Below are positions 39,901 through 41,896 of a DNA stretch of 64,000 bases, piece by piece. The stretch's first letter is position 1, and the number at the start of each line of letters is the position of its first letter. A program made the position numbers. The stretch lies in the NCBI RefSeq assembly GCF_988243305.1, contig NZ_OZ547136.1, one strand, 5' to 3'.

Positions 39901-41896
39901 GGACGGAGCGTCGTTACTGTAAATTATTACATGACGACAATCGCTGGAATGTTTCAGTTTGCTGCAGATCACGGTTACTTAGAAGCAAATCCCTTCCAGG
40001 GAATTAAGCCTCTTAAAAGAGCCAGGGCAGAGCCAGATCCGCTAACTCGTGACGAATTTATTCGCCTGATAGATGCTTGCCGACATCAGCAGACGAAAAA
40101 CCTGTGGTCATTGGCTGTGTACACAGGAATGCGTCACGGTGAACTGGTCTCCCTGGCCTGGGAAGATATCGATCTGAAGGCAGGAACAATTACCATCAGG
40201 CGCAATTATACGAAACTTGGTGAGTTCACTCTACCGAAAACTGAAGCAAGCACAAACAGGGTTGTGCACCTTATCCAGCCCGCTATCAGTGTCCTGAAAA
40301 ATCAGGCTGAAATGACAAGACTGGGTAAGCAGTACAACATCAAGGTGCAACTACGTGAATATGGACGTTCAGTGAACCATGAATGTACTTTCGTGTTTAA
40401 CCCTCAAGTGGTTAGAAAAAGCGAACAGGTAGGTTTTGTCTACAAAGTCGATTCTGTAGGTGACTCATGGGAAACAGCCATTAAGCGTGCAGGGATCAGG
40501 CATCGAAAGGCATACCAGTCACGACACACTTATGCGTGCTGGTCATTATCTGCCGGAGCAAACCCAAGCTTCATTGCCAGCCAGATGGGCCATGCAAGTG
40601 CCCAGATGGTATTCAATGTATACGGAGCATGGATGACTGACAGCAATGCAGAACAGATCGCAATGCTGAATCAGAAGCTGACAGATTATGTCCCAATGAT
40701 GCCCCATAGTCACCAAAGTGACACCAGAGGCTTATTAAAATCAGTAAGTTAATCCTTAATACCCGTCATGTTAACTGTGTGGAGGGCAACACCACGCTTT
40801 ACGCCCTGCCGAAATCCGAGGTTGTCCTGCGCTGGCGTGAGCAGACCACAGATAATTTTCGCTTCTGTTTTAAGTTTCCGGCGACCATTTCGCATCAGGC
40901 AGCATTACGGCATTGCGATGATTTAGTAACTGAATTTTTGACTCGCATGTCACCGTTAGCGCCGCGCATTGGGCAATACTGGCTGCAACTGCCTGCCACA
41001 TTTGGCCCACGGGATCTGCCTGCGCTTTGGCATTTTCTCGACTCTCTTCCCGGCGAGTTTAATTATGGTGTGGAAGTTCGCCATCCACAGTTTTTCGCCA
41101 AAGGGGAAGAGGAACAAACACTTAATCGCGGTTTACATCAGCGCGGCGTTAATCGGGTGATTTTAGACAGCCGCCCGGTTCATGCAGCACGTCCACACAG
41201 TGAAGCTATTCGCGACGCTCAACGAAAAAAACCTAAGGTTCCGGTACATGCTGTACTGACGGCGACAAATCCGCTGATCCGTTTTATCGGTAGTGATGAT
41301 ATGACGCAAAACCGGGAATTATTTCAGGTCTGGTTACAAAAATTAGCGCAGTGGCATCAGACCACTACGCCTTATCTTTTTTTACATACGCCAGATATTG
41401 CCCAGGCCCCGGAACTGGTACATACCCTGTGGGAAGACTTACGTAAAACGCTTCCAGAGATCGGAGCAGTTCCGGCTATTCCACAGCAATCTTCTCTTTT
41501 CTGAATTTGCCACCTATCATAGACAGGTGCCATCGGCCATTTTAAAGGGAGTTTGTATGGTAAGCGCGCTGTATGCCGTTTTAAGTGCGTTGTTATTAAT
41601 GAAGTTCTCTTTTGATGTCGTTCGCCTGCGAATGCAGTACCGCGTTGCCTATGGTGACGGTGGTTTTAGCGAACTGCAAAGCGCTATTCGCATTCATGGT
41701 AACGCGGTGGAATATATTCCCATCGCGATTGTGCTGATGCTGTTTATGGAAATGAATGGCGCAGAAACCTGGATGGTGCATATTTGCGGCATCGTTTTGC
41801 TTGCTGGTCGTCTGATGCATTATTACGGTTTTCATCACCGTCTGTTCCGCTGGCGACGTTCCGGCATGAGCGCCACCTGGTGTGCGCTGTTGCTGA

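Follow-up and report, generated by a model that had tools for sequence, protein, structure and literature searches.

A 64,000-nucleotide stretch of contig NZ_OZ547136.1 (RefSeq assembly GCF_988243305.1), hereafter the window, contains a phage integrase gene that ends directly in front of a yecE gene lacking its 5′ end, and the yecE reading frame runs open across the boundary into phage DNA. This raises the question of what the DNA at 40753-40800 is and what becomes of yecE. A sequence-only reading of the window had described the site as a prophage integrated within the 5′ coding region of yecE, creating a chimeric N-terminus. We hold with high confidence that 40753-40800 is the integrase-proximal attachment (att) junction of a phiP27-family lambdoid prophage in the known yecE attB site. 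We also think it probable that yecE is disrupted here and reversibly restorable by excision, the chimeric frame being incidental. The genes that meet at the junction are as follows:

39439..40752, plus strand: phiP27-type tyrosine integrase (Int), 437 amino acids, apparently intact (open reading frame, Pfam matches and alignment with phiP27 Int).
40734..41504, plus strand: chimeric open reading frame (ORF) as delimited by RefSeq, 256 amino acids, ATT start; phage DNA makes up codons 1-12 and part of codon 13.
40779..41504, plus strand: 3′ remnant of yecE read from GTG (Val32), 241 amino acids, DUF72 (ORF and Pfam match).

The int stop codon, TAA, lies at 40750-40752, and the ORF bears out the integrase end that had been read at 40752. 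Similarity to uninterrupted yecE begins at 40759, close to the integrase end as claimed, and continues through yecN, cmoA, cmoB and torZ at ~97% identity. The prophage does lie inside the 5′ coding part of yecE, with the exchange at codons 29-31 and the junction within 40753-40800. The second junction had been placed outside the window, which agrees with our comparison: position 1 falls among tail genes, and blastn with the yecD to yecE-5′ region gave no yecD, aspS or yecE-5′ match within the window. What the sequence-only reading missed is the identity of the site, which is the published integration site of phiP27 and of Shiga toxin (Stx) phages. Insertion of Stx phages at yecE has been described (PMC8065619, PMC9751135), and a 21-bp att at yecE, with further copies inside other prophages, was reported by Nakamura et al. 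2021 (PMC8112680).

Int combines an N-terminal Arm-DNA-bind_2 domain (PF12167, E=1.9e-23, residues 7-70) with a catalytic Phage_integrase domain (PF00589, E=3.1e-18, residues 202-395). Its translation shows the motifs TGMRHGEL, SRHTYA and GHASAQMVFNVY, picked out by eye without a formal alignment of catalytic residues. It is identical to phiP27 Int at 416 of 436 residues (95%) without gaps, both proteins being 437 amino acids long. These matches identify a phiP27-type Int, an arm-binding member of the lambda family. It would carry out integration and excision at yecE, for which the 295 genomes with this junction and the free attP forms speak indirectly. phiP27 itself (Stx2e; AJ298298 / NC_003356) sits in yecE and has the same xis-int gene order. 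Its record annotates an 11-bp attL/attR at its ends, TTAACTGCGTG, in the same position as window 40771-40781, and the int stop lies 29 nt from the core end in both phages. The eighth core position differs, being T in the window junction and C in phiP27, and the T could be traced to the host allele.

To describe how the junction is built we use the following elements:

40771..40777, plus strand: TTAACTG, the predicted 7-bp overlap (yecE nt 86-92, codons 29-31).
40761..40770, plus strand: phage core-type half-site C, ACCCGTCATG, which in the alignment matches the host half-site GCCCGCCACT imperfectly.
40778..40787, plus strand: host core-type half-site B′, TGTGGAGGGC, an inverted repeat of GCCCGCCAC across attB.
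40739..40751, plus strand: consensus site for integration host factor (IHF), AATCAGTAAGTTA, overlapping the last int codons (LLKSVS and stop) and the ‘IKISKL’ of the yecE frame.
40688..40706, plus strand: two tandem arm-type repeats, ATGTCCCA and ATGATGCCCCA, of the int-proximal attP arm, inside the 3′ coding end of int.

Alignment with an uninterrupted yecE, which the sequence-only reading had proposed as a check, sets intact yecE, the window and the distal junction of Escherichia coli AR_0372 side by side as attB, attL and attR. Intact yecE reads ...TATGCCCGCCACT TTAACTG CGTGGAGGGC... (attB); the window junction reads, coming from the phage, ...ACCCGTCATG TTAACTG TGTGGAGGGC...; and the AR_0372 distal junction reads ...GCCCGCCACT TTAACTG CGTGATACGG..., with the phage on the right. 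Unintegrated attP, present on three viral contigs, reads ...CCCG.CATGTTAACTGCGTG followed by ACGCGG..., that is, ...CCCG.CATG TTAACTG CGTGACGCGG... (sequence string ...CGTCATGTTAACTGCGTGATACGG...). By the lambda and phiP27 convention the window junction is attL, standing on the right side in the orientation of the window.

Two single bases bracket the exchange. Position 40770 is a phage base (G, against T in the host). Position 40778 is T, a host allele, as intact yecE with TGT linked to downstream AAATCC occurs in many genomes. All attP forms have C at this position, as do 36 of 37 distal-type matches (two of the 37 being free attP), and three lysogens that match the window at 100% over the int-side junction have C at the distal one. 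Across the collected loci, which are not independent, T was found at this polymorphic core position in 7/25 int-side vs 0/34 distal junctions (Fisher p=0.0014). Since 40770 is phage and 40778 is host, strand exchange would have taken place within TTAACTG, and the host polymorphism thus reduces the predicted exchange region to 7 bp, compared with 11 bp in the phiP27 annotation and 21 bp in the literature. A single polymorphic site underlies this mapping, and the three lysogens with paired junctions may belong to one clone. In two loci (L013 and L015) a different downstream allele accompanies the T, and no intact counterpart of that allele was found. Heteroduplex segregation across a slightly different overlap may be an alternative. 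A crossover in the GTG (40779-40781), first suggested by C in attL against T in attR, was dropped when the T was recognised as a host allele. At one distal junction (L061 1050..1075) the position holds A instead of C (TTAACTGAGTG), so that in the detached 5′ fragment codon 31 of yecE is a stop; this is either a post-integration mutation or a phage variant.

The DNA around the overlap has the layout of a lambda-type site. attB is an inverted repeat, GCCCGCCAC-t-TTAACTG-c/t-GTGGAGGGC, complementary at 8/9 positions and spanning yecE codons 26-35, and the attP half-sites GCCCGTCATG and CGTGACGCGG form an inverted repeat complementary at 7/10. The reconstructed attP carries seven co-oriented TG[CT]CCCA repeats, at -81 and -70 and, for the other five, at +129..+181 relative to the overlap. 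The two int-side repeats start at 40690 and 40701, within the last int codons, and are kept in every phage lineage collected. Between these repeats and the core, AATCAGTAAGTTA fits the established IHF consensus WATCARNNNNTTR perfectly when read from the sequence. Related loci were collected with a pattern containing fixed AAAATCAG...GTTA, so the outer IHF bases in those loci are no evidence of conservation; the three free bases within the NNNN differ among them (TAA, TGG, CAA, TTA, TAG, TGA). The Ec1117-type lineage (L003), found independently by similarity, also has a perfect IHF site, AATCAGCAAGTTA, even though int stops short of the site there.

Judging from these matches, IHF and Int would bind at the junction. 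The attP arm comprises the 26 bp from the int stop to GTG 40779 (40753-40778) together with the last ~65 bp of int, and every base from the int stop up to host DNA can be assigned to a putative part of a lambda-type attP arm. Because arm repeats and IHF site lie inside the int coding sequence, the last ~20 int codons are under a double constraint. The Int tail encoded there (40690..40752) is variable among lineages (SHQSDTRG, SHESSTGG, RPQTNSRG) save for its LLKSVS end, where the IHF site lies.

We propose that Int recognises the inverted-repeat attB in yecE codons 26-35, with strand exchange in the 7-bp TTAACTG, so that lambda-type site-specific recombination would split yecE after about nt 92 of 819. 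Codons 1-32 would be kept at the far end of the prophage, beside yecD and the native promoter, and codons 32-272 would end up directly behind int, next to an attP arm with two arm-type Int sites, an IHF site and core-type site C. On this model yecE stays disrupted for as long as the prophage is present, and excision would restore the gene exactly; transcripts reading through from int could yield a YecE′ product without the invariant N-terminal residues.

What, then, does the open frame across the junction represent? The frame had been read as open back to a stop at 40719, and both that TGA and the residues given for it are correct. It runs TGA(40719) CAC CAG AGG CTT ATT AAA ATC AGT AAG TTA ATC CTT AAT ACC CGT CAT GTT AAC TGT GTG(40779) GAG GGC, translating upstream of the GTG as *HQRLIKISKLILNTRHVNCVEGNTT, that is, TGA(40719) HQRLIKISKLILNTRHVNC V(GTG 40779) EGNTT.... 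An open stretch of 19 codons is no longer than chance gives: 54% of all 19-codon windows on the plus strand of the phage DNA, real genes included, are free of stops, and the expectation for random sequence is (61/64)^19 = 0.40. Across 23 distinct phage-side variants the upstream stop lies from 11 to >65 codons away, one of them (L021) has an in-frame TAG within the stretch, and the residues between IKISKL and RH differ freely (LILNT, LVFNT, LTPNA, LSQHT, LARHA).

The YecE-like residues TRHVNC, compared with ARHFNC in the host, come from the 13-nt core-type site C, 8/13 identical to site B, and arise because C must resemble B; beyond these 13 nt the similarity to yecE is 7/21 nt, the chance level. 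IKISKL recurs because of the IHF-consensus site and, in this lineage, because the Int C-terminus LLKSVS* is encoded there in another frame. We considered ‘IKISKL...RHVNCV’ as yecE coding sequence carried by the phage and rejected it, given the chance-level similarity beyond the core and the occupation of the stretch by the IHF site and the last int codons. The chimeric N-terminus of the sequence-only reading thus survives as a phage-host chimera at the DNA level; at the protein level it finds no support, as its phage-derived part lacks a canonical start and the GTG a Shine-Dalgarno (SD) sequence, in a stretch of chance length whose conserved letters are explained by the Int C-terminus and the IHF site. 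That reading had offered a start at the GTG or a phage-host fusion. The GTG is the sole canonical in-frame start, and that reading left out the most likely outcome, a disrupted yecE with a remnant that is weakly translated at most.

The part of YecE that is cut off is under purifying selection: residues 1-32 do not vary between genera, although the 96 nt encoding them differ by 13-14 synonymous substitutions, and they align with the N-terminus of a solved DUF72 protein, EF0366 (1VPY). Residues 1-16 have no phage counterpart in the fusion, which is also without the yecD-coupled start and the native promoter. From its sequence, any YecE′ product is probably inactive, and the lysogen would be expected to lose YecE function.

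A truncated YecE of 241 amino acids, made from GTG 40779, could still be a real product of the junction, and we regard this as unlikely. No ATG, GTG or TTG occurs in the phage-derived part of the frame, which leaves this GTG as the only such codon in frame before the domain, and the protein read from it keeps most of DUF72 (E=6e-42, profile positions 22-215 of 217, 144.6 bits). The same codon is an ordinary internal one, Val32 of the 272-amino-acid intact YecE, in all intact alleles. It has no SD pairing (+1.2 kcal/mol), and a start there would dispense with 31 invariant N-terminal residues, those that align with the start of the solved homologue.

A more far-reaching alternative is that the phage repairs its target gene adaptively, supplying a new start and N-terminus so that a functional 256-amino-acid YecE fusion is made from ATT 40734 on transcripts reading through from int, much as other phages bring a replacement for the end of the gene that they interrupt. 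Several observations lend weight to this and count against an incidental frame. At identical junctions RefSeq annotates the frame open across the junction as an intact 256-amino-acid DUF72 coding sequence (CDS); the AR_0372 CDS (L004 3035..3805) corresponds to window 40734..41504 and reads IKISKLILNTRHVNCVEGN... from the ATT. A weak SD-like GAGG stands 4 nt upstream of ATT 40734 (-5.8 kcal/mol), derived from the Arg-Gly codons of Int. The fusion form scores slightly higher against the DUF72 profile than the GTG form (155.5 bits, profile positions 15-215), and some phage-encoded residues are aligned, namely residues 10-16 with profile positions 15-21.

In the Ec1117-type lineage an ATG overlaps the int stop (ATGA) in frame with yecE, which looks like translational coupling and may reflect some selection for expression, and in L021 an ATG stands 8 codons ahead of the core. 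A scan of 39000-41700 for promoters and terminators found no terminator between int and yecE′, and the remnant is therefore probably transcribed; in the same scan nothing on the plus strand near the junction rose above the shuffled expectation, which is uninformative on expression.

We nevertheless consider such repair very unlikely. ATT is a very poor start codon, and its presence in every collected lineage carries little weight, as it abuts AAAATCAG, which was fixed in the pattern with which the loci were gathered, and also falls in the Int LLK codons TTA TTA AAA. The RefSeq start looks like an annotation choice driven by homology. The invariant residues 1-16 that the phage does not replace, the chance-level similarity past the 13-nt site, the shifting upstream stop with the TAG of L021, and N-termini strongly unlike between lineages all speak against a phage-encoded YecE N-terminus.

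A related proposition, that the phage side has been selected to keep translation going from int into yecE′ (by ATT with GAGG here and by an ATGA-coupled ATG in the Ec1117 type), has in our estimate only a slim chance of being right. If it were true, lysogens would express a phage-tagged, N-terminally remodelled YecE, or would keep ribosomes or transcription flowing into yecN-cmoA-cmoB under prophage control, and the phage would by its insertion have rewired a host operon instead of simply knocking out a gene. With reversible disruption of yecE as the preferred reading, the 256-amino-acid ‘DUF72 protein’ with an ATT start that RefSeq gives at such junctions is to be read as disrupted yecE, and beyond annotation the finding matters little.

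In the Ec1117 type (L003 2489..3268; viral contigs L018, L019, L029, L049) the RefSeq ‘yecE’ is 259 amino acids long and starts MRMIKISKL...; in the free attP of L019 the same ORF is just ~21 codons. Phages of this type have an Int of 419 amino acids, are 88% identical to the window in DNA over the module, and share 23 bp (ATGCCCGCCACTTTAACTGCGTG) with attB, where the window phage has 7 bp of strict identity with imperfect flanks.

Comparison with other integration systems sets the junction in the same light. Like lambda, the phage has a two-domain Int with an arm-binding N-terminal domain and int directly beside attP, and its sequence suggests arm repeats on both attP arms, an IHF consensus by the core and inverted half-sites around a 7-bp overlap. 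Unlike lambda, the int-side arm extends over the final ~65 bp of the int coding region, just 18 bp separate the int stop from the overlap, and attB lies inside a coding sequence, not between genes. In e14 and phage 21, which integrate into icd, and in many integrators into tRNA genes, the displaced gene end is duplicated whole and a full-length product is kept. The window junction resembles the icd/e14 type in the insertion within a gene, in the likeness of the phage DNA beside att to the displaced host sequence, and in the open frame. It differs from that type in carrying ~13 nt of imperfect similarity (8/13) and in the loss of 16 N-terminal residues, the native start and the promoter. We looked for replacement of the whole displaced segment, the defining feature of the icd/e14 type, and found ORFs of 256 or 241 amino acids against 272 in intact YecE; the junction therefore belongs to the phiP27 Int/att family at yecE and not to the gene-restoring icd/e14 kind.

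The window ends before the far side of the prophage is reached, and its own distal junction, which is not visible and whose presence we infer from near-identical lysogens, is a point to be set against this reading. AR_0372 has a 48.5-kb prophage in yecE that runs colinear with the window (168..40829 matches L006 10363..49901), the last 7 kb being 99.9% identical. In AR_0372 the distal junction has the order yecD, yecE nt 1-96, phage DNA, and a distal junction with the yecE 5′ end, core and phage arm is present in the near-identical lysogens AR_0372, RIVM_C037166 and 98198. By this comparison the distal junction of the window would lie ~9-10 kb past its left edge. That the site is not a true att junction, and instead a remnant left by decay or rearrangement, or a join made in assembly, placing int beside a 5′-deleted yecE, as the unseen distal junction might allow, is next to inconceivable given the identical junction in hundreds of independent complete genomes, the matching distal junctions 42-49 kb away in lysogens, the existence of free attP forms, a join falling precisely in the annotated phiP27 att, and the int, xis and immunity region that ORF and Pfam analysis shows to be intact in the window.

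The int-yecE junction was found in 295 of 5426 complete E. coli genomes, O104:H4 and ST131 strains among them, and the distal-junction type in 524 genomes of the same collection. The yecE site is occupied in about 5-10% of complete E. coli genomes. The 241-bp junction of the window is 100% identical in four complete E. coli genomes; when junction and yecE are compared together (window 40771..43706), the best complete-genome match is 99.1% over 861 bp and none is identical. Related junctions also occur on yecE alleles with flanks markedly unlike E. coli, which are probably from other enterobacteria. At the DNA level the int end matches just four phage records. The Stx1a, Stx2a and Stx2d prophages and the non-Stx lambdoid prophages described at yecE (PMC8112680) use the same locus and exchange region as the window; their integrase lineage is the shorter one of 419 amino acids, with a longer identity to attB. 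Insertion at yecE is already known, and what is added here is small: the 7-bp overlap, as a host polymorphism allows it to be predicted, and a map of the attP arms at sequence level, from which the design of att-PCR assays for yecE occupancy could gain.

A search of the window for another yecE-like attB, allowing up to 3 mismatches, found none. In two IMG/VR sequences (L043 and L065) a phiP27-type distal junction lies in a ~50-bp yecE-like attB copy inside unrelated DNA (...GGAGTCATTACCC followed directly by GGTTGGGGATCACCAGCC...), which fits the ‘attB-in-prophage’ (attB-in-PP_1) of ompW prophages (PMC8112680).

Away from the junction, the remaining landmarks of the prophage and its flank are:

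1..40770, no strand assigned: prophage body with tail, head, lysis, Q, replication and immunity genes, then xis-int; it continues past the left window edge.
39147..39383, plus strand: excisionase gene, 78 amino acids (ORF; the equivalent CDS is an ‘excisionase family protein’ in AR_0372 and phiP27).
41557..41952, plus strand: yecN, downstream the first host gene to be left intact, preceded by a Shine-Dalgarno sequence of its own, GGGAG (annotation of homologous loci and sequence).

The prophage is lambdoid, ~50 kb long and without stx, and Pfam matches identify its Q, Rz, CI-like repressor, Cro-like and Rha proteins. It is longer than phiP27 (42.6 kb) and has a lambda-like head and tail module. 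No stx operon lies at the Q-tRNA-nanS position, where 19152-22586 is colinear, without insertion, with the stx-less AR_0372, no direct search for stx proteins having been made; the matching AR_0372 region holds tRNAs and a SASA esterase. Three phage tRNA genes lie at 22193..22438 on the minus strand, Arg-TCT, Arg-TCG and one with a CAT anticodon (tRNA-Ile according to RefSeq in AR_0372), at the position just downstream of which Stx phages carry stx and where no stx operon is present here. Between this cluster and the Q antiterminator gene (24535..24933, minus strand) the prophage carries a full-length general porin gene (23204..24346, plus strand, 380 amino acids, Porin_1 E=4e-153) on the strand opposite to the late genes. 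The AR_0372 prophage, colinear in other respects, lacks this gene, which probably encodes a phage porin of the Lc/NmpC-like kind; genes of that kind are known to act in lysogenic conversion.

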